Of a stretch of DNA of 31,056 nucleotides, positions 1-12,731 are shown piece after piece. Every line of letters starts with the position of its first letter. The stretch's first letter is position 1. Both the position numbers and the translations under genes were made by a program. The DNA is from Escherichia coli (lineage in GTDB: Bacteria; Pseudomonadota; Gammaproteobacteria; Enterobacterales; Enterobacteriaceae), in assembly GCF_003334335.1 (NCBI RefSeq), contig NZ_QOWQ01000047.1. One strand, 5' to 3'. The notes beneath the pieces were generated by a model that worked only from the letters and a program-made list of their open reading frames with translations, was not told where the DNA came from and did not search any database.

Positions 1-463
1 CTTTATTATCGAGTTCGGTGACCGCCTGGACGGCCACTTCTGAGAAAAGGTATTTACACAGAATCCTGAACAGGCTCCCGCAATTCTTTACCCGCCAACC
101 TACCAACAATAGATGCACGTGCTCGTTTTTATCATCACCTAGATCGCCATCACTGTATTAATAGGTATGGTGATGTACTCACAATTCTACAAACCGACGG
201 CTGGCTTCCTCTACCGCAGAAATAATCTACTAAGGCGGTCTAAACGAAATTAATGATGAAATACCGGCATGTTGATAATATCAGAAAAGACATGCCATAG
301 TTATCTTGATCCGAATACCATGTGCGACGACTCGCTCAACTTCCATCATTCTTGGTACGTTGGAATCTCTTAATAAATTCTATCTGGCCACGGTGATTTA
401 TACCCTACTGAATTATATTGCTTTATTGAGAGAAACGGCCGTTCTTGGCAAGAAGCGGACAGA

Positions 464-907
464 CTAACTTAGCAGTAGGTCCGCTGTGAGCGAGGTGCAG
501 AAGTTCGCAATTGTTCTCGCAACCAAGGTAGCTAAAAAACACGGCAGGCAAATGTCTACATGTAAGATACACTTGCTATTATCAAGAATTTTAGTCCTGA
601 AGCATTTTAACTTTCTTCTCATGTTTTTATATTCGCCATTTATCCATTCAGGTTCTTCCCGAATAGCTGATCGCATACAGTGTGTTAGGATATCATTCCA
701 GAAAGCTGCAATCGCATCTGCAAACTCTATAAACTGTGTTTCTGTAACCTCTAGTTGCTCATGACGTAGACTAAATCTGACGGTGTCACCACGATGTAGC
801 ATCAGCATTGCGGTGAGCCGCCGGGCATGGTTTTTGTCATTTGTTTTATGGATAGTTTTCTGCATCAGGTGCCGTTCGGCTCTGGGTATTGGTACTATGA
901 TCGGCAT
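464..907 (-). pseudogene. Chimeric ORF. The first ~43 codons resemble the N-terminal HTH of IS630-family transposases and the rest is unrelated, so this looks like a transposase remnant.
   Basis: The N-terminus MPIIVPIPRAERHLMQKTIHKTNDKNHARRLTAMLMLHRGDTV closely parallels the recalled IS630 transposase start (MPIIAPISRDERRLMQKAIHKTHDKNYARRLTAMLMLHRGD...). Similarity stops after about residue 43. No DDE region is present, and 147 aa compares with about 343 aa for an intact enzyme. Confidence 0.45.
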
Positions 908-908
908 T

Positions 909-972
909 ACTCAGTCCGGCTGGTGATTTGGGATATTCAGCGATTGATCAGATCGCATAAACCGGACTGAGT
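909..972. repeat. Perfect 11-bp inverted repeat, ACTCAGTCCGG (909-919) and CCGGACTGAGT (962-972), with a 42-nt spacer
   Basis: Read directly from the sequence. It abuts the start codon of the transposase-like ORF (907), so it could be IS-end or leader structure. Confidence 0.6.
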
Positions 973-1289
973 TCCCCTTGAGTGATCTACTATTCCGAGC
1001 AGCTATTTAGATTGTTATTGATGCCGGAAGAAAACATCACTCGATCAATTCCCCAATAGTCAAGCAAGCAAAAGAGAGTGCTGCACAGTTCAATGCTGGC
1101 CGTTTCATGCGAGGAAAATTCCCTTTTCATTGCAAGTTGCTCAAACTCTTTAGTGCCATCCTGAATGCGATGCTCAGAAAGAACAAAGAAATGTAATGAA
1201 TCCTGCCATCAGGTTACTCCATAATTTTGCTGGTCAAGACAGTTAATTACGTGACGTATGCTCAGGCACCGGATGCCGTTTTACCGGGT

Positions 1290-2021
1290 TCACCTGCCAT
1301 CCAGTAGACGCCCCGGCCCACGACTGCAACCATAATTACGTTGCCCGGAACCGTTATGCAACTTCGTTTCATTTTTCACGAGATAACGGGCTCTCTCCAG
1401 GGCTTTCTGCACCGCTTCCTTGTCACCACGCGTGACCCAGAGCACAGCGGATCCACCAGACTTTTTGTCAGAAGCCTTCCGGGTATCAGAACACCCACTT
1501 GGTAAAGGCGTGTCATCGGAAGAAGGGGGAGCAGCAGGTGATGTCGGTTTACGGGAAGGAGTCCACCTGGAAAAATGGACCAGCCCATCACCCAGCCAGG
1601 GCTCAATACGCAGGGCGCTGCACCATGCCTCCTGGATCAGCGTCGCCAGCGAAGAAGAAACGGTGAAATCCCCGAGCGAGCACCAGGTATCTTTGTTGAG
1701 CAGTAATATCACGTGATAATGTTTCCTGCCATACATCTTGCCGAACTCCCGGCACCAGAAATAACCCAGGCTGGTTGCATGCACACGCTGATTGGCACAT
1801 CTTTTTTTCCGCTGGTAAGCCTGAATTTTGGCTTTCAGGGATTCGAAAAAACGAGAAATCACCGCTGAATCCGGATCGGGCTCCATGATGGTGACAGGCA
1901 TATACTCAGGGAAACGTAAATCCACCCGGATTAACGAGACGGCACGGTGTTGCACCAGGGCACTGTTGAGAATACTTTCAAAACGGGATAACCAGTAATC
2001 ATTGTGTATTGGTTGATTCAT
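1290..2021 (-). CDS. YagK/YfjJ-family protein (inovirus Gp2-like domain), typical of CP4-type islands
   Basis: A 243-aa ORF. Its N-terminal two-thirds (…LIRVDLRFPE…, …RKHYHVILLLNKD…) resemble my recollection of K-12 YfjJ/YagK. It also has an internal Pro/Ser-rich low-complexity stretch. Confidence 0.6.
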   Translation of the reverse strand: MNQPIHNDYWLSRFESILNSALVQHRAVSLIRVDLRFPEYMPVTIMEPDPDSAVISRFFESLKAKIQAYQRKKRCANQRVHATSLGYFWCREFGKMYGRKHYHVILLLNKDTWCSLGDFTVSSSLATLIQEAWCSALRIEPWLGDGLVHFSRWTPSRKPTSPAAPPSSDDTPLPSGCSDTRKASDKKSGGSAVLWVTRGDKEAVQKALERARYLVKNETKLHNGSGQRNYGCSRGPGRLLDGR

Positions 2022-2690
2022 GATGAGAGATCTCCGTTGATTTGGATTGACTTCACATCATTAATCGCCGCGGTAAAACTTTACGGCATCCCACCAATGA
2101 GCAACGCCAATAGCTCCTGATTAAAACGGAATGAATCGTCCCGTAACGAAAAGATAATCCTGCACACGACAGCAAAACGTAAAACAACAGCATGAATGAG
2201 CTAAATGTCTAAAGAAAAACTGCCTTTTCACATTATTTTTCAGCGAGTAATCATACCAGCATCCCTAACATACGAAATCGCATCGTGATCGATCGCTGAT
2301 TCGCCGAACAACTGATCGAATACACCGGAATCTGCACTAACATCCTGATGGGTAACGGAAGACTAAAAAACCAGTGTTCTATTGATTGCACGGAATGCCT
2401 GTGCGCTGGCCTGACCAGTAAGCACAATTCTACGAGTAGTAAGATATCTACTCCAAAACCATGCGCAGTAGCCACCATATGTTGCCAGGGTGAAAAATAA
2501 GCTCAGAGCTATAGGGGAGTAATTCCCGTTAATGTCATCGCCGTACCTCAATCAGCTCACAAACTGGCTGAAACGTTAAGCTGAGGCCTTTATTCTTCAG
2601 ATGTATTTTCCGGTTTACCTGTAAATTATCTTCTGATATTTATCACATTAGTAATTGTGCTGATTATCTACATACTTCAAGGTCTGAAAT

Positions 2691-3221
2691 ATGAAGCTAA
2701 CAGAAGAAAGTCTGAATCTAGTCATTGACATCCTGAATGATTTGATCTGTGAAGGAAAAATGCTGAACGATGTGGAGCGCAGATCTCTGCTCAATGCAGT
2801 TATGGCAATTACAGCGGTAAAAGAACGTTCTGTCGTATCTGTATCATCCCGAAAAGAGCAAAGTAAGAAGGAGAAGAAGGAAAGAGAGATCGATCCTCGT
2901 TTCCCAAATGCTGGTGTGGCATGGAATGAGGCAGACGAGAGTTTATTGCGAGATGTTCTGGAGGATGTACCGGACGATGAAATTGGTAAACACCTTTTCT
3001 GGCTGGCAGAGAAACTAGGGCGAACCCCGTACAGTGTAGCCTGTAAAGTCAGACAAATTAAGAAATTACCTGCAGAATGGAAGGATCAATTTCGTAAAAT
3101 CTCTGACAGGATCCGTAGTTCTGGAATGTCAGTCAGTGAATATCTACAACGCCAGGGACTGTTAAGCCCAGAGTCAGGGGAAGAAAACAATCCTGTCAGT
3201 CATAACAACAATGTAGCTTAA
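2691..3221 (+). CDS. Hypothetical protein with a possible Myb/SANT-like helix-turn-helix segment
   Basis: A 176-aa ORF. Residues ~75-125 read AWNEADESLLRDVLEDVPDDEIGKHLFWLAEKLGRTPYSVACKVRQIKK. This follows the W-x2-E-[DE]-x2-L … W-x-[IL]A-x2-LGRT … spacing of Myb/SANT repeats. A Lys/Glu-rich linker (KEQSKKEKKERE) precedes it. Confidence 0.5.
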   Translation: MKLTEESLNLVIDILNDLICEGKMLNDVERRSLLNAVMAITAVKERSVVSVSSRKEQSKKEKKEREIDPRFPNAGVAWNEADESLLRDVLEDVPDDEIGKHLFWLAEKLGRTPYSVACKVRQIKKLPAEWKDQFRKISDRIRSSGMSVSEYLQRQGLLSPESGEENNPVSHNNNVA

Positions 3222-3234
3222 TCCTGAAGAAGAT

Positions 3235-3261
3235 GAACAGTTTATACTCTTTAAACTGTTC
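3235..3261 (+). terminator. Hairpin downstream of the 2691-3221 ORF: GAACAGTTTA, 7-nt loop, TAAACTGTTC
   Basis: Perfect 10-bp arms at 3235-3244 and 3252-3261, starting 14 nt after the stop codon. Only a weak T-run follows (CCTTAATTTTAG). Confidence 0.4.
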
Positions 3262-3748
3262 CCTTAATTTTAGAAAAACAGTTTGTGTAAGTGCATGCTC
3301 CAACATTCTGAAGGCGTTATTTCTTACAATACATCATAATCATTGGCAGATCCTCATCTGAATCAAAACACCACAACCAATCATCACACTTTTTCTGAAA
3401 AGAGCCTTATGATGAAGATAATCACCTTACGCTGAGAAAAAACACCAGGGCCAGTTAATCACCTTATCAATCTCGCCGTTACAAAATCATCCATAAGCCA
3501 TTTAACAGTGTTATCGCAAACTCACAGTAAATCGCATCAGGTTACCTCAATCGGATTTGAGTTAATTCACTGGGCTTTACGTAAAGATACTTTTCTCAAG
3601 CTAACGTCGAAACTCGAAATCTAAGGAAAGGTTAAACGTAACATCAGTAAAATCGAATAGCAGATTGATTGCTTAAACAGAAAGGTTTTACAGCAGCATT
3701 AAACTGATTTAGTTAACGTAAAGATTTACTAAACTGGATGTGTATAGC

Positions 3749-3880
3749 AATGCTTAACGAAAACACTTGTAGAAGTGTTTATGAAAATACGTGTATGTCT
3801 GGTAAAACACTTAGTAGAAAATACGTGTATAACACTTACTGAAATGCTTAGTAAAAATACTTAGTAAAATACGTGTATAT
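3749..3880. repeat. Iteron-like cluster of short direct and inverted repeats in an ORF-free AT-rich tract
   Basis: AAAATACGTGTAT occurs three times (3784-3796, 3818-3830, 3866-3878). The CTTAGTA core occurs three times (3810-3816, 3847-3853, 3860-3866), with degenerate copies (CTTAACG, CTTGTAG, CTTACTG) often 13 bp apart. A perfect palindrome AAACACTT-GTAG-AAGTGTTT sits at 3761-3780. Confidence 0.75.
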
Positions 3881-4384
3881 AGTATCATACCGACATTCTC
3901 AACATCTTCAGACTTCCATACATACTGGGTGTTAATTTTTCACTTTTACAGCCAGCATGGAGTTTTCTGTCCTAAAAACAGAGCAGATTTACTCTGGAGT
4001 TATTTTCCTGTTCACGTATTCAGTACAGCAGAAATCCCGTGATAACGAGACAGTAAACCATCGTAATCAGCGTCTGTAACTCCATCGCTTTACCCCAGAA
4101 AAGTTAAGCCATATAATGTGAGGGATATAAGTCGTCGTATCCGGTAAGTACAGATAACCACAACATAAGCTCATTCAGTAAATTTTATCTCTGAACAAAC
4201 GACTATGGCATGCTCATTTATACTATTCATAAGAAAGTGTGATTATCTGTAAGCATTAACCATCAAATCATATAACCATACTAAACTGGCGGATCATCAG
4301 CACCATTAGCAGGTAACTTATTGAAATTTTATTATGTGTTTTTTGTTGATAATTAATATGCAATATGAATTTGATATTTTAGAA

Positions 4385-5608
4385 TCATGAACACCATTTA
4401 AAATTACCATCATTAATATCATATAAAAATATATTTTTACTAAAACATGAATTGTATATATTTATTAGCTCAGGAAAATTATCAGGGTTCACCTTCAAAT
4501 TAACCTGAATGTTATGCTTAATTTCACCCAGTAGTTCTTCATGTGTGGATTTTATTATCCCATTATTATAATCGATAAATGCACACATGTTTTTTATGAA
4601 TTCAAAACCTTTTCCTGTATACAGTTTAATGAATGCCACCAGAGCAAACATTTCAAGATGTAGCCATAATGCTACGTTAGTTTTTTGCAAAGTATAAAAA
4701 ATTGAATTCGCCACTTTTTTACTTATTGCTCTTTTATACTGTGATCGAGCAAGATTCAGTAGCGGAAGCTCTCGTTCAATAAATGAATGTGAAAAGACTG
4801 GATAAATTGATGTCGGAAACCTTTCAGGCCTTATGATATTTTCTATTTCCACCATAAATCTATCCATAGAAAGAAAGTCACTTTCTTTTTTTATTCTGGT
4901 ATAGAGACCGCCTTTATTCCTTTCTGAGGTTTGTTTTCGTGCTATCCCCCCTAACAATTTCTCTAATTGTTTATTTATCTTCGTATAATTAAATACAACC
5001 ATTCTTCTTATCATCCTCGGAAGGATAATAATATCAGTGCTTGAATCACTTGAACGGCAATTATTATTTATCCATGCAACTTCAAGTTGCAGTATCGGAA
5101 CATTAACTTTTCTGGGGTGAATATCACTCTGATATCGTTTTTTGTATGCGTTTTCATTAAGATATTCTCTGCTGTAGAGAAACTTATAGCAATATAATCT
5201 GATAATATCTTTTATGTAAAATTTAAATAGTTCACCTGTAACAGATATATGTTTTCTGCTCAGTAACTCCTGTGTATTAAGCCATTCCCGTGACCGAAGC
5301 ACACCCTTGTGAAAACTTTTTCTTACTTGCTTTGAGGCACGGCATTGATGTAATATTTTTGCGTCCTCAATAATTCTCTTTCCCGTTTTATTTTTTGCAG
5401 CATCTCTTACTCCATAAAATATCTCCCGGTCCAGACTTTTGTCATATTTACTGATTATACGACAAATATTCCTGACCCGACGATTCTCTTTATTTCGCTT
5501 CCATAGCTTATAATGATCATCGCATAACCTTAAGGCATTTGCCTCATCAAATTCTGAAACAGGATTACTGCATTTTTTATTCCGACAAATACCTTTGTTT
5601 TTAGCCAT
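4385..5608 (-). CDS. Orphan hypothetical protein (407 aa) from a very AT-rich gene, with an N-terminal Cys/His cluster
   Basis: An uninterrupted 407-codon ORF with a purine-rich GGGAAGAAGAG stretch just upstream of the ATG. The N-terminus has C8-x4-C13 … C29-x2-H32. The rest is Lys/Ile/Asn/Phe-rich. I see no Walker A, DDE, RT or other motif I can recognise. Confidence 0.7.
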   Translation of the reverse strand: MAKNKGICRNKKCSNPVSEFDEANALRLCDDHYKLWKRNKENRRVRNICRIISKYDKSLDREIFYGVRDAAKNKTGKRIIEDAKILHQCRASKQVRKSFHKGVLRSREWLNTQELLSRKHISVTGELFKFYIKDIIRLYCYKFLYSREYLNENAYKKRYQSDIHPRKVNVPILQLEVAWINNNCRSSDSSTDIIILPRMIRRMVVFNYTKINKQLEKLLGGIARKQTSERNKGGLYTRIKKESDFLSMDRFMVEIENIIRPERFPTSIYPVFSHSFIERELPLLNLARSQYKRAISKKVANSIFYTLQKTNVALWLHLEMFALVAFIKLYTGKGFEFIKNMCAFIDYNNGIIKSTHEELLGEIKHNIQVNLKVNPDNFPELINIYNSCFSKNIFLYDINDGNFKWCS

Positions 5609-5708
5609 ACTCTTCTTCCCGTCAATGGAAAAATTTTCACACCCATATTACCTGAATGATAAACCGGATTAGTGTGATCCGGTTCAGTGAAATCAACAGG
5701 ATACCGGT

Positions 5709-7214
5709 ATGCCATTCAGCAATTCTTCCCTCTCCGCGCAAGTGAAATCATATCTGACGTTTCTTCCTGAAGAAATACGCCAGAAAATCCTTGAACATCT
5801 CCACGGTGTTATTCATTACGAGCCCGTGATTGGCATTATGGGTAAATCCGGCACCGGCAAGAGCAGCCTGTGTAATGCCATTTTTCAGTCCCGTATCTGC
5901 GCCACGCATCCCCTGAACGGCTGCACCCGCCAGGCTCATCGTCTTACCCTGCAGCTCGGTGAACGCAGAATGACGCTGGTCGATCTGCCCGGCATTGGTG
6001 AAACACCGCAGCATGATCAGGAATACCGAGCGCTTTATCGTCAGTTACTGCCGGAACTGGATCTGATTATCTGGATCCTGCGGAGTGATGAACGTGCGTA
6101 TGCTGCCGATATTGCCATGCATCAGTTTTTACTGAATGAGGGCGCAGATCCCTCGCGCTTTCTGTTTGTTCTCAGCCATGCCGATCGCATGTTTCCTGCT
6201 GAAGAATGGAATGCCACAGAAAAATGCCCGTCCCGTCACCAGGAACTCTCACTGGCGACAGTAACAGCCCGGGTGGCCACCCTGTTCCCTTCATCATTTC
6301 CGGTACTCCCCGTAGCCGCGCCTGCAGGCTGGAACCTTCCAGCGCTGGTGTCACTGATGATCCACGCGCTGCCACCACAGGCAACCAGCGCAGTTTATTC
6401 ACATATCCGGGGGGAAAACCACTCTGAACAGGCCCGGAAACACGCACAACTGACTTTTGGTGAAACCATCGGGAAAAGTTTTGACGACGCCGTTGCCCGT
6501 TTCAGTTTTCCGCCCTGGATGTTACAGCTTCTGCGCAAAACCCGGGACCGCATTATCCACCTGCTGTTCACTGTGGCATCCTTCTCCACCTCCGCCGGTA
6601 ACTGGGCTGTCAAAAACGGCTGGTGCCAGACCATGACGGAAGATGGTCAGGCGCTGGTAATGCTGAAAAATGGCACGATTGGTATTACCGGCCTGATGCA
6701 GGGATGCCCGAATGGCGTACAGACGCTCCTGGGCAGCCGTATCAGTATTAACGGTAACCTGATCCCCACATCACAAATGTGTAATCAGCAGACGGGATTC
6801 AGGGCTGTTGAGGTGGAAGTCGGACAGGCGCCGGAAATGGTCAAAAAAGCCGTTCACTCCATAGCAGAGCGTGATGTGTCCGTTTTACAGGCATTTGGTG
6901 TACGAATGGAATTCACCCGCGGTGATATGCTGAAGGTCTGTCCGAAATTTGTCACATCACTTGCCGGTTTTTCCCCGAAACAGACACCCGCCATTAATAA
7001 AGATTCCGTCCTGCAGGCTGCCCGGCAGGCATACGCCCGGGAATATGACGAGGAAACAACAGAAACCGCTGATTTTGGCTCTTACGAAGTAAAAGGCAAT
7101 AAGGTTGAGTTTGAAGTGTTCAATCCTGAAGACCGTGCGTACGACAAAGTGACCGTCACGGTTGGTGCTGACGGTAATGCCACCGGTGCCAGCGTTGAAT
7201 TTATCGGAAAATAG
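5709..7214 (+). CDS. YeeP/YkfA/YfjP-family GTPase (residues ~1-288) continuing in frame into a ~210-aa segment of unknown family
   Basis: It has a G1 P-loop GKSGTGKSS, a G3 DLPG and SHAD in place of the G4 motif. K-12 paralogues are recalled as about 287 aa, but here the frame stays open to 501 aa. An internal ATG at 6633 (M309) starts the extra segment. Confidence 0.8.
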
Positions 7215-7219
7215 CTGGT

Positions 7220-7453
7220 ATGTCGGACTGTCACCCTGTTTTATTGCCCGAAGGCCCTTTCTCACGCGAACAGGCGATGGCTGTCACAACAGCTTACCGC
7301 AATGTGCTTATTGAAGATGATCAGGGAACGCATTTCCGGCTGGTTATCCGCAATGCTGAAGGGCAGCTACGCTGGCGGTGCTGGAATTTTGAACCTGATG
7401 CCGGAAAACAGCTTAATGCGGGGCTCGCCAGTGAGGGAATTCTCAGGCAATAA
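7220..7453 (+). CDS. DUF905-family protein (YkfF-like)
   Basis: 77 aa. The run [55 protein letters not shown] closely parallels recalled YkfF. Confidence 0.8.
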
Positions 7454-7475
7454 ACGTCTTCATTTCATCCATCAG

Positions 7476-7507
7476 GCCACGTCTTCTCCGGGAGACGTGG
7501 CTTTTTC
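7476..7507 (+). terminator. Rho-independent terminator after the DUF905 gene
   Basis: GCCACGTCT (7476-7484) pairs with AGACGTGGC (7493-7501), extendable by two more pairs, and is followed by TTTTT. Confidence 0.7.
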
Positions 7508-7551
7508 ATTTATTACACCAGTAAATCTTAACCACCAATAAGGAGCAAATC

Positions 7552-8370
7552 ATGCGATTAGCAAGTCGTTTTGGTTATGCGAACCAGATACGCCGTGACC
7601 GCCCCTTAACTCGCGAAGAACTGATGCAGGTCGTCCCCAGCGTATTCGGGGAAGATAAGCACACATCCAGAAGCGAGAACTATACCTGGATCCCCACCAT
7701 CACAGTGCTGGAAAGCCTGCAGCGGGAAGGTTTTCAGCCATTCTTTGCCTGCCAGACCCGCGTACGTGACCCGGGCCGCCGGGGGTATACCAAACACATG
7801 CTGCGTCTGCGCCGTGACGGGGAGATAAACGGACAACATGTCCCTGAAATCATCCTGCTGAACTCCCATGACGGTACCTCCAGCTACCAGATGCTGCCGG
7901 GTTACTTCAGGTTCGTCTGCCAGAACGGCTGCGTCTGTGGTCAGTCTCTGGGGGAAGTGCGTGTTCCGCACCGGGGAAATGTGGTGGACAGAGTCATTGA
8001 AGGGGCTTACGAGGTGGTGGGCGTGTTTGACCGGATTGAGGAAAAGCGTGATGCCATGCAGTCGCTGATTCTGCCGCCACCGGCACGCCAGGCGCTGGCA
8101 CAGGCGGCACTGACTTACCGTTATGGTGACGAACATCAGCCCGTCACCACCGCCGACATTCTGACGCCACGACGCCGGGAGGATTACGGTAAGGACCTGT
8201 GGAGTGCTTATCAGACCATCCAGGAAAATATGCTGAAAGGCGGGATTTCCGGTCGCAGCGCTAAAGGAAAACGTATCCACACCCGTGCCATTCACAGCAT
8301 CGACACGGACATTAAGCTCAATCGCGCATTGTGGGTGATGGCAGAAACGCTGCTGGAGAGCATGCGCTGA
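7552..8370 (+). CDS. DUF932-family protein (YfjQ/YafZ-like)
   Basis: 272 aa with an AGGAG RBS 8 nt upstream. The sequence (…HMLRLRR…LLNSHDGTSSYQ…FRFVCQNGCVCG…) matches my recollection of YfjQ/YafZ. Confidence 0.85.
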   Translation: MRLASRFGYANQIRRDRPLTREELMQVVPSVFGEDKHTSRSENYTWIPTITVLESLQREGFQPFFACQTRVRDPGRRGYTKHMLRLRRDGEINGQHVPEIILLNSHDGTSSYQMLPGYFRFVCQNGCVCGQSLGEVRVPHRGNVVDRVIEGAYEVVGVFDRIEEKRDAMQSLILPPPARQALAQAALTYRYGDEHQPVTTADILTPRRREDYGKDLWSAYQTIQENMLKGGISGRSAKGKRIHTRAIHSIDTDIKLNRALWVMAETLLESMR

Positions 8371-8461
8371 TGCTGTTTCCCTGAAAGTGCAGCCCTGACT
8401 CACGTCTGTACCAGTCCCCAGGCATTCTTCCATTCATTTACTTTTTATAAGGAATCATCTC

Positions 8462-8947
8462 ATGACAACCTTTTCGCATAGCTCCACCACACCTTCTGTT
8501 TCCGTAACCACTGCATCAGGGAATAACCAGTCTCAACTGGTTGCCACCATAGTCCCTGATGAACAGCGCATCAGCTTCTGGCCGCAGCACTTTGGCCTCA
8601 TTCCACAGTGGGTGACCCTGGAGCCCCGTGTCTTCGGCTGGATGGACCGTCTGTGTGAAGACTACTGCGGTGGTATCTGGAATCTGTACACCCTGAATAA
8701 CGGCGGCGCATTTATGGCGCCCGAACCGGATGAAGATGATGACGAAACATGGGTACTGTTCAATGCCATGAACAGTAACCGCGCTGAAATGAGCCCGGAA
8801 GCCGCCGGCATTGCAGCCTGTCTGATGACGTACAGCCATCATGCCTGTCGTATGGAGTGTTATGCCATGACGGTCCATTATTACCGGCTGCGGGATTATG
8901 CCCTGCAGCATCCGGAATGCAGCGCCATTATGCGCATCATTGACTGA
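8462..8947 (+). CDS. Antirestriction protein, KlcA/ArdB-like (YfjX/YafX-like)
   Basis: 161 aa. It has the characteristic …FWPQHFG…WMDRLCEDYCGGIWNLYTLNNGGAFMAP… block and sits in the conserved position upstream of the radC-like gene. Confidence 0.85.
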   Translation: MTTFSHSSTTPSVSVTTASGNNQSQLVATIVPDEQRISFWPQHFGLIPQWVTLEPRVFGWMDRLCEDYCGGIWNLYTLNNGGAFMAPEPDEDDDETWVLFNAMNSNRAEMSPEAAGIAACLMTYSHHACRMECYAMTVHYYRLRDYALQHPECSAIMRIID

Positions 8948-8961
8948 AAGGGGCCGGAACA

Positions 8962-9438
8962 ATGCAACAGATTTCCTTTCTGCCCGGAGAAATGACGCCC
9001 GGTGAGCGCAGCCTCATTCAGCGGGCCCTGAAAACCCTGGACCGCCATCTTTATGAACCCGGCGTGGCCTTCACCTCCACGCATGCGGCACGGGAGTGGC
9101 TGATTCTGAACATGGCGGGACTGGAGCGGGAAGAGTTCCGGGTGCTGTATCTGAACAACCAGAATCAGCTGATTGCCGGTGAAACCCTTTTCACCGGCAC
9201 CATCAACCGCACGGAAGTCCATCCCCGGGAAGTGATTAAACGCGCCCTGTACCACAATGCCGCTGCCGTGGTACTGGCGCACAATCACCCGTCCGGTGAA
9301 GTCACACCCAGTAAGGCAGACCGGCTTATCACCGAACGTCTGGTACAGGCACTGGGCCTGGTGGATATCCGGGTGCCGGACCATCTGATAGTCGGTGGCA
9401 GCCAGGTTTTCTCCTTTGCCGAACATGGTCTGCTTTAA
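8962..9438 (+). CDS. RadC-like JAB/MPN domain protein (YeeS/YkfG/YfjY-like)
   Basis: 158 aa with the JAMM-type motif HNHPSGEVTPSKAD. Confidence 0.9.
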   Translation: MQQISFLPGEMTPGERSLIQRALKTLDRHLYEPGVAFTSTHAAREWLILNMAGLEREEFRVLYLNNQNQLIAGETLFTGTINRTEVHPREVIKRALYHNAAAVVLAHNHPSGEVTPSKADRLITERLVQALGLVDIRVPDHLIVGGSQVFSFAEHGLL

Positions 9439-9500
9439 CCCGTCACAACCACATCACACCTGTTTTCACTTTTATCTTCTGTCTTCAGAGGTATCACACT

Positions 9501-9722
9501 ATGAAAATCATCACCCGTGGTGAAGCCATGCGTATTCACCGTCAGCATCCAGCATCCCGTCTTTTTCCGTTCTGTACCGGTAAATACCGCTGGCACGGTA
9601 GCACGGATACGTATACCGGCCGTGAAGTACAGGATATTCCCGGTGTGCTGGCCGTGTTTGCTGAACGCCGTAAGGACAGTTTTGGTCCGTATGTCCGGCT
9701 GATGAGCGTCACCCTGAACTGA
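9501..9722 (+). CDS. DUF987-family protein (YeeT/YkfH-like)
   Basis: 73 aa (MKIITRGEAMRIHRQHP…), in the conserved position between the radC-like gene and the antitoxin gene. Confidence 0.85.
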   Translation: MKIITRGEAMRIHRQHPASRLFPFCTGKYRWHGSTDTYTGREVQDIPGVLAVFAERRKDSFGPYVRLMSVTLN

Positions 9723-9801
9723 GTCTGGAAGGGCATTCAGAAGAGCAGAATTATCGCCACCACCGGACCATTCTTAACCAATTTTCTGTGAGGATTTTAT
9801 C

Positions 9802-10170
9802 GTGTCAGACACATTCTCCGGGACAACGCATCCCGATGACAATCACGACCGCCCCTGGTGGGGACTGCCCTGCACCGTGACGCCCTGTTTTGGTTCCCGT
9901 CTGGTACAGGAAGGCAACCGGTTGCATTACCTTGCCGACCGCGCCGGTATCAGAGGGCGGTTCAGCGACGCGGATTCGTACCACCTGGACCAGGCCTTTC
10001 CGCTGCTGATGAAACAACTGGAACTCATGCTCACCAGCGGTGAACTGAATCCCCGCCATCAGCATACCGTCACGCTGTATGCAAAAGGGCTGACCTGCGC
10101 AGCCGACACCCTCGGCAGTTGTGGCTACGTTTATATGGCTGTTTATCCGACGCCCGAAACGAAAAAGTAA
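9802..10170 (+). CDS. cbeA: Type IV antitoxin CbeA (YeeU/YfjZ/YafW family)
   Basis: 122 aa with a GTG start. It is near-identical to recalled YeeU (…DNHDRPWWGLPCTVTPCFG.RLVQEGNRLHYLADRAGIRG…). Confidence 0.9.
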   Translation: MSDTFSGTTHPDDNHDRPWWGLPCTVTPCFGSRLVQEGNRLHYLADRAGIRGRFSDADSYHLDQAFPLLMKQLELMLTSGELNPRHQHTVTLYAKGLTCAADTLGSCGYVYMAVYPTPETKK

Positions 10171-10259
10171 CTCTCCAGAATAACCTTCTGCTCCGGCCTG
10201 GTGCTTTCACCACGCCACTTTTCCATTTTTCATCTCTGCATATCAGGAAAATCTTCAGT

Positions 10260-10637
10260 ATGAAAACATTACCTGTATTACCCGGGCTGGCGGCCAGTTC
10301 ACGCCCGTCTCCGGTTGAAATCTGGCAGACACTGCTCACCCGACTGCTGGATCAGCACTACGGCCTTACGCTGAATGACACACCATTCGCTGATGAACGT
10401 GTGATTGAGCAGCATATTGAGGCAGGCATTTCACTGTGTGATGCGGTGAACTTTCTCGTTGAAAAATACGCGCTGGTACGTACCGACCAGCCGGGATTCA
10501 GCGCCTGTACCCGTTCTCAGTTAATAAACAGTATTGATATCCTCCGGGCACGCCGGGCAACCGGCCTGATGACACGCGACAACTACAGAACGGTAAATAA
10601 CATTACCCTGGGTAAACATCCGGGGGCGAAACAATGA
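10260..10637 (+). CDS. cbtA: Type IV toxin CbtA (YeeV/YkfI/YpjF family), a cytoskeleton-targeting toxin
   Basis: The track ORF 10119-10637 contains an internal ATG at 10260. From there MKTLPVLPG.AASSRPSPVEIWQ…DQHYGLTLNDTPFADERVIEQHIEAGISLCDAVNFLVEKY matches recalled CbtA (~124 aa). The 47 codons upstream overlap the cbeA 3' end and intergenic sequence. Confidence 0.9.
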   Translation: MKTLPVLPGLAASSRPSPVEIWQTLLTRLLDQHYGLTLNDTPFADERVIEQHIEAGISLCDAVNFLVEKYALVRTDQPGFSACTRSQLINSIDILRARRATGLMTRDNYRTVNNITLGKHPGAKQ

Positions 10638-11056
10638 AACAGGCCCTGACGCTGGAAGCCGACAGCATTAATGCGCAGGCGCTGAACATGGGGCGCATTG
10701 TCGTTGACGTCGATGGTATTGAGCTCGCTGAACTGATTAACAAAGTCGCTGAAAACGGTTATTCACTCCGCGTGGTGGATGAACGTGACGCTACCGAAAC
10801 ACCGGCGACTTCTGCCAGCCCTCATCAGTTGCCGGAAGACAATACAGTGATACAGAGCGTGATGCCATTAACCACTGAAACAGCGCTGGATATCCTCATT
10901 GCGTGGCTGCAGGACAATATCGACTGCGAATCGGGAATTATCTTTGACAACGATGAGGATAAAACGGATTCGGCAGCACTGTTGCCCTGTATCGAACAGG
11001 CCCGGGAGGATGTCCGGACTCTTCGTCATCTGCAGCTTCTGCACCAGAACCGGTAA
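10634..11056 (+). CDS. YeeW-like protein (DUF5983-type), translationally coupled to cbtA
   Basis: 140 aa. Its start codon overlaps the toxin stop (ATGA at 10634-10637), and it sits where yeeW does in CP4-44. Confidence 0.7.
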   Translation: MKQALTLEADSINAQALNMGRIVVDVDGIELAELINKVAENGYSLRVVDERDATETPATSASPHQLPEDNTVIQSVMPLTTETALDILIAWLQDNIDCESGIIFDNDEDKTDSAALLPCIEQAREDVRTLRHLQLLHQNR

Positions 11057-11085
11057 ATATCACTCACCATACTTCATTCCACTGA

Positions 11086-11116
11086 CGTCAGCCTGAACAG
11101 GGCTGGCGTTTTCGTT
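11086..11116 (+). terminator. Rho-independent terminator after the yeeW-like gene
   Basis: CGTCAGCC (11086-11093) pairs with GGCTGGCG (11101-11108) with one G-U pair. A 7-nt loop is followed by TTTTCGTTT. Confidence 0.6.
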
Positions 11117-11140
11117 TATAAACCAAAAGGGAAACCGATC

Positions 11141-11983
11141 ATGTCAGACATCACAATCTCCCGTCCGGAAGTGGTCACCGGGCATACGGACGTTATCTGC
11201 TCAATCAGTATCCGCCACATTCTGGCTGTACGAAAGAGTACACTGCTGCAAATCGACACACTTATCCGGCAACTGGCTGAAATATCAGCAATGACAGAAA
11301 GTATTGGCGGTAAAGCCGCCCCGGACTGGGCCATGAAACAGGATTTTCGCTGCGGCTGCTGGCTGATGGAGAAACCGGAAACCGCAATGAAAGCCATCAC
11401 ACGCAATCTCGATCGCGAAATCTGGCGTGACCTGATGCAACGTTCAGGGATGCTTTCCTTAATGGATGCACAGGCCCGTGATACATGGTACCGGTCACTG
11501 GAGCACGATAATTTTCCGGAAATCAGTGAAGCGAACATTCTGAGCACATTTGAACAACTACACCAGAATAAGGATGAGGTGTTTGAGCGAGGGGTGATCA
11601 ACGTCTTCAGGGGACTGAACTGGAATTACAAAACCAATTGCCCCTGCAAATTTGGCAGTAAAATTATCGTCAACAACCTAGTGAGGTGGGACCGATGGGG
11701 GTTTCATCTTATCACCGGGCAACAGACTGACCGACTCGTCGACCTGGAAAGAATGCTACATCTGTTCAGCGGCAAACCGATCCCCGACAACCGGGAAAAC
11801 ATCACTATTCGTCTGGATGGTCACATCCAGTCCGTTCAGGGTAAAGAGCGCAATGAAGACGAGATGTTCATCATTAAATACTTTAAGAAGGGATCTGCAC
11901 ACATCACTTTCAAAAGGCTGGAACTGATTGACAGAATTAACGATATAATAGCCAGGTACTTTCCTTCTGTGCTCTCAGCCTGA
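11141..11983 (+). CDS. DUF4942 domain-containing protein
   Basis: 280 aa. It resembles what I recall as the conserved terminal gene of CP4-type islands downstream of cbtA/yeeW. Confidence 0.7.
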   Translation: MSDITISRPEVVTGHTDVICSISIRHILAVRKSTLLQIDTLIRQLAEISAMTESIGGKAAPDWAMKQDFRCGCWLMEKPETAMKAITRNLDREIWRDLMQRSGMLSLMDAQARDTWYRSLEHDNFPEISEANILSTFEQLHQNKDEVFERGVINVFRGLNWNYKTNCPCKFGSKIIVNNLVRWDRWGFHLITGQQTDRLVDLERMLHLFSGKPIPDNRENITIRLDGHIQSVQGKERNEDEMFIIKYFKKGSAHITFKRLELIDRINDIIARYFPSVLSA

Positions 11984-12093
11984 TCCCGAGTGTGATTCCC
12001 TTTCGATATCAAAAGGGACTGCGGGTATAATTGAGGGTATATTTTTAATCAAACCAAATAAATTATATTAATATCAATATGATAAAAGAAATT

Positions 12094-12115
12094 TTCGATT
12101 CCGAGTCCGGCACCA
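12094..12115 (+). repeat. Island attachment-site repeat: a 22-nt copy of the tRNA-Phe 3' end (TTCGATTCCGAGTCCGGCACCA)
   Basis: It matches the recalled 3' end of E. coli tRNA-Phe (…GGTTCGATTCCGAGTCCGGGCACCA), lacking one G of the GGG run. The upstream sequence is AT-rich island DNA, not the tRNA body, so this is not a functional tRNA. Confidence 0.8.
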
Positions 12116-12124
12116 AATTCATAT

Positions 12125-12155
12125 AAACGGACCTCCACGGAGGTCCGTTTTTCGT
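12125..12155 (+). terminator. Native pheU rho-independent terminator, retained next to the att repeat
   Basis: AAACGGACCT (12125-12134) pairs perfectly with AGGTCCGTTT (12141-12150) and is followed by TTCGTTT. Confidence 0.8.
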
Positions 12156-12731
12156 TTCAGGACGCCACGATTTAAGCGTTCTGCCTCCAAATCAATTCTA
12201 CCGAACTCAACCAGATTCTCCCCACATCACCAGCAATTTGCGGGCATATCCCAATTCGGGAAAATTTGTTCCTGAGCTATAGCACTAACTGACGTGAAAT
12301 GTCGTGCGGCCCCGTGATGCTGTTGAACGTCAAATGACGTCATCAGGAGCGTAACGCATCCATAAAGCACAACACCGGTCTGAACGGCGACTGATGAGAT
12401 TTTCTGAATGAGAACAAAGAGAAATGTATCAGTTCGCTTGCTCATGCAAAGACTAACAATCCATTAAAATAGTAAGTGCTCCGGACAATTTTCCATGGAT
12501 TATTTTCTGAACATTTTTCTTTGGCAAAGATGATGAATTTTGATGGTAAGGAATATTACTTCTGGTTCTCAGTAAAATCCTTTCGTAATACTATGTAATC
12601 AAGAAGTTTATGGCTGGTAAAAATAACGTCTTGCATTCACCAATAATATGTAAATAAACCCATCTATAGATGGTAAAAATAGGTTGTGGCAATTATCATT
12701 GCATCATTCCCTTTTCGAATGAGTTTCTATT

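Follow-up and report, generated by a model that had tools for sequence, protein, structure and literature searches.

A YfjP-type GTPase gene fused in frame to an exported-protein gene, very probably by a short-repeat deletion, in a cryptic island of Escherichia coli

Genetic organization of the locus

The stretch of E. coli DNA analysed here (the window; 31,056 bp) carries on its plus strand a single ATG-initiated open reading frame of 501 codons at positions 5709..7214, with a sequence exactly as quoted in the preliminary description. Its product is deposited in GenBank as RCQ57045.1 and HAH9022117.1 and annotated as a 'hypothetical protein'. The ORF is composed of codons 1–286 of a GTPase gene followed by codons 11–225 of an exported-protein gene (286 + 215 = 501). 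It is flanked by the normal neighbours of the locus: upstream, a divergent 407-aa hypothetical gene (4385..5608, minus strand), 99.7% identical to its counterpart in the strain P393-F10 locus (L001) described below, and downstream, as identified by Pfam and locus comparison, a DUF905 gene (7220..7453, plus strand). Directly after the DUF905 gene lies a terminator-like hairpin (7474–7503, plus strand) with a 13-bp stem, seven G-C pairs and a T-run, which suggests that the GTPase fusion and DUF905 form one transcription unit apart from the DUF932 gene. Promoter and terminator scans returned counts no higher than the shuffled expectation and are uninformative on transcription of the chimera.

The right-hand 18.5 kb of the window is E. 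coli backbone (cadCBA, dtpC, lysU-type lysS, dcuS and fumB), 100% identical to several genomes, which places the island at the pheU-side junction. Since the window contains no tRNA gene, the island's pheU end must lie beyond it. The island is a mosaic that is closest to L001 and L010 left of the fusion junction and to a third locus, L008, in the 225-aa gene (99.5%). For positions 1–12500, the best complete-genome match has 96% identity over 94% of the sequence, and the closest relative shifts along the length. Near the left end, a 147-aa ORF (464–907, minus strand) gives a marginal PADLOC match to HamA/DUF1837 of the Hachiman system (E ~1e-3; profile positions 130–217 of 286); the match may have arisen by chance, or the ORF may be what is left of a gene.

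Intact loci in other E. coli

A megablast search with window positions 5600–7300 matched 2,901 of 5,426 complete E. coli genomes. In the best matches (98.3–98.5% identity), the query aligns as two separate segments that together extend over ~2,790 bp of subject sequence, versus 1,701 bp in the window. The L001 locus contains, in order, genes for a 294-aa GTPase (3110–3994), a 226-aa helix-turn-helix regulator, a 225-aa hypothetical protein (5028–5705), DUF905 and DUF932, followed by an antirestriction protein, RadC, DUF987 and a YeeU-family antitoxin. The preliminary description had proposed that a deletion might have fused two genes and that alignment to K-12 and to other islands would locate the ancestral stop codon. 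Alignment to the intact loci bears this out: the GTPase frame ends after 294 codons, and the 225-aa protein has a gene of its own downstream, a division into separate genes seen in thousands of E. coli genomes. Among whole islands, L010 comes closest; it matches the window at 98.6% identity from position 78 as far as the junction and has the regulator gene in place.

The 226-aa regulator that is usually encoded between the two genes contains Pfam HTH_11 and WYL domains, matches the PADLOC WYL profile with an E-value of 1.6e-19, and is 43% identical over its full length to K-12 YfjR (b2634), a putative DNA-binding regulator of CP4-57 with the same HTH_11 and WYL domains. Unlike CP4-57 with its YfjR, the window lacks the regulator gene, presumably by deletion. 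A regulator-less arrangement also occurs naturally: a 118-bp spacer separates the GTPase and 225-aa genes in all three such loci that we examined (L002, L008 and L009), and 331 genomes match a 201-bp query across the junction so closely that they may be assigned to this arrangement. The coexistence of both arrangements in E. coli indicates that the yfjR-like WYL regulator has been recurrently gained or lost.

The GTPase-derived part

The first part of the chimera (5709..6566, plus strand) corresponds to codons 1–286 of the 294-aa YfjP/YkfA-type GTPase gene and is 98.7% identical to L001 3110–3967. It contains the G1 motif GKSGTGKS and the G3 motif DLPG, and the Pfam P-loop domain MMR_HSR1 (PF01926) is recognized at residues 41–142 of the 501-aa protein with 54.6 bits, above the gathering cut-off of 21.9. 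This domain is shared with the putative GTP-binding proteins YfjP (b2632, CP4-57) and YkfA (b0253, CP4-6) of K-12, which are of the YeeP/NgrB type. The islands that carry YfjP and YkfA also have downstream genes in common with the window island (DUF932, antirestriction, RadC, DUF987 and CbeA/CbtA); the gene order differs in that K-12 yfjQ (DUF932) directly follows yfjP. The length of about 287 aa given for the K-12 GTPases in the preliminary description is correct, since yfjP and ykfA both measure 864 bp (287 aa), whereas the window GTPase belongs to a distinct subfamily of 294 aa. The intact 294-aa protein is 35% identical to YfjP and 34% to YkfA, with residues 12–294 aligning onto YfjP 10–287 and both alignments reaching the C-terminal end of the K-12 protein. 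This full-length colinearity breaks down in the window, where the GTPase sequence stops at residue 286, eight residues short, and the tail ITLWERLF (of the W-x-x-x-F type) is replaced by foreign sequence. All other sampled members of the GTPase cluster are at most 294 aa long.

In the C-terminal half of the intact L001 GTPase (gene 3110–3994), residues 185–284 weakly match the PADLOC profile LeoBC, which represents the Eleos/dynamin-like defence system (E 1.6e-7, 28.9 bits), and the same protein matches Pfam Dynamin_N at E 2.2e-9. The YfjP-type GTPases of such islands may be related to defence dynamins. In the literature searched, the YfjP/YkfA GTPases and the pheU/pheV islands receive passing mentions only.

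The exported-protein part

The second part of the chimera (6567..7214, plus strand) comprises codons 11–225 and the stop codon of the 225-aa gene, and is 99.5% identical to L008 2508–3155 and 98.6% identical to L001 5058–5705. The encoded sequence is 97–99.5% identical to residues 11–225 of exported Enterobacteriaceae proteins of 225–229 aa (WP_161620543.1, WP_023155728.1 and WP_072652851.1), all annotated as 'hypothetical protein'. The family comprises 60 clusters at E≤1e-3 in a collection of 5.8 billion proteins and 61 representatives among 1.84 billion; it occurs in E. coli, Klebsiella, Citrobacter, Enterobacter and Lelliottia. Those of full length have 225–237 residues, and all begin with a signal peptide or lipobox; the intact 225-aa protein starts with MNTR(T/M/A). 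The conserved signal peptide consists of M-(K/N)-x-basic, a hydrophobic core and A-x-A, directly followed by GNW. The mature domain has four invariant cysteines and the conserved motifs GNW..NGWCQT..QGCP..C..VCPK. These features are all present at window positions 6597–7211, where the cysteines become residues 306, 333, 358 and 411 of the fusion. The C-terminal part is predicted to fold into a small beta domain and an alpha+beta domain. More distant relatives (336–491 aa) have the domain right after a signal peptide or lipobox, followed by a C-terminal extension.

The segment had been described as unlike Ag43 and not assignable to a family. The former statement fits the domain searches: residues 309–501 have no match in Pfam or NCBIfam, and thus none to Antigen 43, to an autotransporter passenger or to a beta-barrel domain in these collections. 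Searches of Pfam, NCBIfam, PHROGs and PADLOC and a sequence profile search of PDB gave no match either for the C-terminal part or for the native 225-aa protein. The small exported proteins encoded by the corresponding K-12 islands, YfjS/YafY and YfjT/YkfB, were rejected as homologues of the 225-aa protein at E>1. A match to a giant adhesin-like protein (P0091; 7,945 aa, 53 matching stretches) was discarded because its repeats score only ~8.6 bits each, and the high total arises spuriously when identical repeats are added up; a second giant adhesin-like match (P0134) is probably the same artefact and was left unused.

In CP4-57-like islands of E. coli, Klebsiella and relatives, a YfjP-type GTPase gene is conservedly followed by the gene for the exported protein. 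In Klebsiella and in one metagenomic relative, its gene is separate and lies 280–400 bp downstream of a gene for a GTPase of 293–297 aa. None of the 61 representatives found at E≤1e-3 among 1.84 billion proteins has a GTPase in front of the domain.

The deletion junction

When the sequences are aligned base by base, the breakpoints in both parental genes fall at CCTGCTG, a direct repeat of 7 bp. The repeat occurs once in the window, at 6560..6566, and at both deletion ends in intact loci, where one copy lies 27 bp before the end of the GTPase gene and the other 30 bp into the 225-aa gene. Around the repeat, the sequence of the intact GTPase gene is ...ATTATCCA CCTGCTG (A/G)TCACACTGTGGGA..., that of the downstream gene (L002, L008 and L010 alleles) is ...TTTTTCC CCTGCTG TTCACTGTGGCATC..., and that of the window is ...ATTATCCA CCTGCTG TTCACTGTGGCATCC.... 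Accordingly, the window protein runs from GTPase-derived ...RDRIIHLL directly into residue 11 of the exported protein, and position 6567, given in the preliminary description as the start of the extra segment, immediately follows the junction. Slippage or microhomology-mediated deletion typically leaves behind just one of two short direct repeats, as here. Imperfect similarity extends 3' of the repeat (TCAC..ACTGTGG), which explains why blastn aligns the window junction to the intact GTPase 3' end with a 2-bp gap.

Relative to L001, the window lacks 1,090 bp: 27 bp of the GTPase 3' end including the stop codon, 1,033 bp of intergenic sequence in which the regulator gene lies, and the first 30 bp of the downstream gene. 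With the regulator-less islands and their 118-bp spacer (L002 and L008) as the reference, the missing segment is 175 bp. Either size is estimated from the nearest relatives, as the parent genome was not found. The 1.09-kb deletion is the more likely of the two, given that the regulator-carrying L010 is so similar up to the junction and that the upstream gene shares 99.7% identity with its L001 counterpart. The deletion took the last eight GTPase residues (ITLWERLF) and the stop codon; from the 225-aa gene it took the ribosome-binding site, the initiating ATG and the codons for the charged n-region of the signal peptide. The yfjR-like regulator gene was probably lost as well, if the parent carried it. 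Stop-loss, which had been named along with deletion as a possible cause, does not account for the junction, because the ancestral stop codon is physically missing with the last 27 bp of the GTPase gene.

Signal-peptide remnant and translation of the C-terminal part

Alignment and hydropathy identify a remnant of the signal peptide at 6567..6596 (plus strand; fusion residues 287–296), corresponding to native residues 11–20, that is, the h-region and the c-region as far as the A-x-A|G cleavage motif. The chimera has no N-terminal signal peptide, since native residues 1–10 with the initiating Met and the Arg/Lys residues are deleted. Across the junction, Kyte-Doolittle hydropathy averaged over 19 residues peaks at 1.05, against a customary transmembrane threshold of 1.6. 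Because the remnant is internal and its hydropathy stays below this threshold, the C-terminal domain is expected to stay cytoplasmic, attached to the GTPase. Left with neither a ribosome-binding site nor a start codon nor the charged n-region, it would be made only as a tail of the GTPase.

The preliminary description also pointed to an in-frame ATG at 6633 as a possible independent start. The codon (6633..6635, plus strand) is present, and the family alignment identifies it as native Met32 within a nearly invariant ...CQTMT... motif rather than a start codon. No AGGA, GGAG, GAGG or AAGG is found within 20 nt upstream of 6633 or of 6573, 6660 and 6696, whereas the deleted native start of the 225-aa gene had GAGG 6 nt upstream of its ATG.

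Rarity and recurrence of the fusion

A 50-bp probe across the junction found nothing by megablast in the 5,426 complete E. coli genomes, and blastn returned only the intact GTPase 3' end. The junction 30-mer is also missing from 185,579 GTDB species-representative genomes (one per species). The fusion junction does recur in at least five other sequencing samples, and contigs of GCA_012738575.1, SRR1815430, SRR32903638, SRR27904302 and SRR30938087 encode exactly the same 501-aa protein; the SRR1815430 contig is common to four samples. The carrier contigs are 99.97–100% identical to the window over 3–8.5 kb, and in all of them the frame is preserved and the ORF intact. Such near-identity of the DNA indicates that the carriers descend from one event and that the fusion is a real, clonal allele of a small clone. 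The preserved frame could reflect selection, but a recent clonal event predicts it just as well.

Origin and significance of the chimera

We interpret the 501-aa ORF as the outcome of one microhomology-mediated deletion with its ends in the two CCTGCTG copies; the island in which it took place is cryptic, CP4-57/CP4-6-like and situated beside cadCBA (pheU). The deletion would have joined the reading frames of GTPase residues 1–286 and exported-protein residues 11–225 into one of 501 aa. It would probably have removed ~1.09 kb including the whole yfjR-like HTH/WYL regulator gene, or 175 bp if the parent was without the regulator. The GTPase moiety would be deprived of its conserved hydrophobic C-terminal tail, and the exported domain would be held in the cytoplasm, away from the compartment of its relatives in which the four invariant cysteines are presumably oxidised. 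We consider it very probable that such a deletion fused the GTPase gene in frame to the exported-protein gene and that the chimera is a product of gene decay. Judged from sequence features, a four-cysteine domain that is normally exported is unlikely to fold or act in the cytoplasm, and the chimera is most likely degenerate and non-functional. Short-repeat (microhomology) deletions make pseudogenes and chimeric ORFs in decaying prophages and islands, and the present case has the same hallmarks: a short direct repeat, a single copy kept, and a cryptic mobile element as the setting.

Three other explanations deserve weighing against deletion and decay. The 215-aa domain could serve as an effector or sensor module of the GTPase in a genuine, selected two-domain protein, a variant architecture that the preliminary description had raised. 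The preserved frame speaks for it, as do the persistence of the allele in several isolates and the synteny of the two genes across genera, a possible hint of a functional link. The sequence databases speak otherwise: the junction occurs in 0 of 5,426 complete E. coli genomes, the domain always follows an N-terminal signal peptide or lipobox and never a GTPase among the 1.84 billion proteins searched, and other sampled GTPases end by residue 294. The many homologues of ~500 aa that would mark a normal two-domain family are not found among the clusters and representatives; full-length relatives of the C-terminal part are all stand-alone exported proteins, and the 294-aa GTPase relatives all stand alone as well. 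Moreover, the carriers are identical in DNA and represent one event, and the two moieties normally work in different compartments. We therefore regard a selected two-domain protein as very improbable. Hardly better placed is separate translation of the downstream part from the ATG at 6633, or from another internal start, as a 193-aa protein; this appears improbable, even though an in-frame ATG is available and restart inside long ORFs is possible in principle. The ATG is an internal Met of a nearly invariant motif, none of the four candidate starts has the Shine-Dalgarno core that preceded the native start, and the product would be without the signal peptide and residues 21–31, including the invariant Cys30, so that no function would be restored.

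An assembly or sequencing artefact, in the form of a collapsed repeat or a chimeric contig, might be suspected because the window comes from a draft assembly and the junction lies within a short repeat. We give this almost no credence, as a 7-bp repeat is too short to collapse an assembly and the identical junction appears in a second, independently made NCBI assembly as well as in at least four further runs assembled by Logan. Within the deletion reading itself, the chimera might conceivably have become functional anew, either with the signal-peptide remnant acting as a membrane anchor or export signal that tethers the cytoplasmic GTPase to a periplasmic domain, or through regulator loss and fusion together rewiring a possibly defence-related GTPase module; we hold either to be very improbable.

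A decay product of one deletion thus remains our preferred account, and the locus represents commonplace gene decay within a single rare lineage rather than a new family of two-domain proteins. As the two frames happen to match here, annotation pipelines record an intact 'hypothetical protein' instead of a pseudogene. The 501-aa entry deserves a flag as a deletion-made fusion pseudogene, and the chimera is unfit as evidence of domain architecture or as a 'Rosetta-stone' link between the GTPase and exported families. The 225-aa family itself (window 6567–7214; L001 5028–5705; further loci L013–L017) is small, uncharacterised and outside Pfam, and is a candidate for a domain-of-unknown-function entry.
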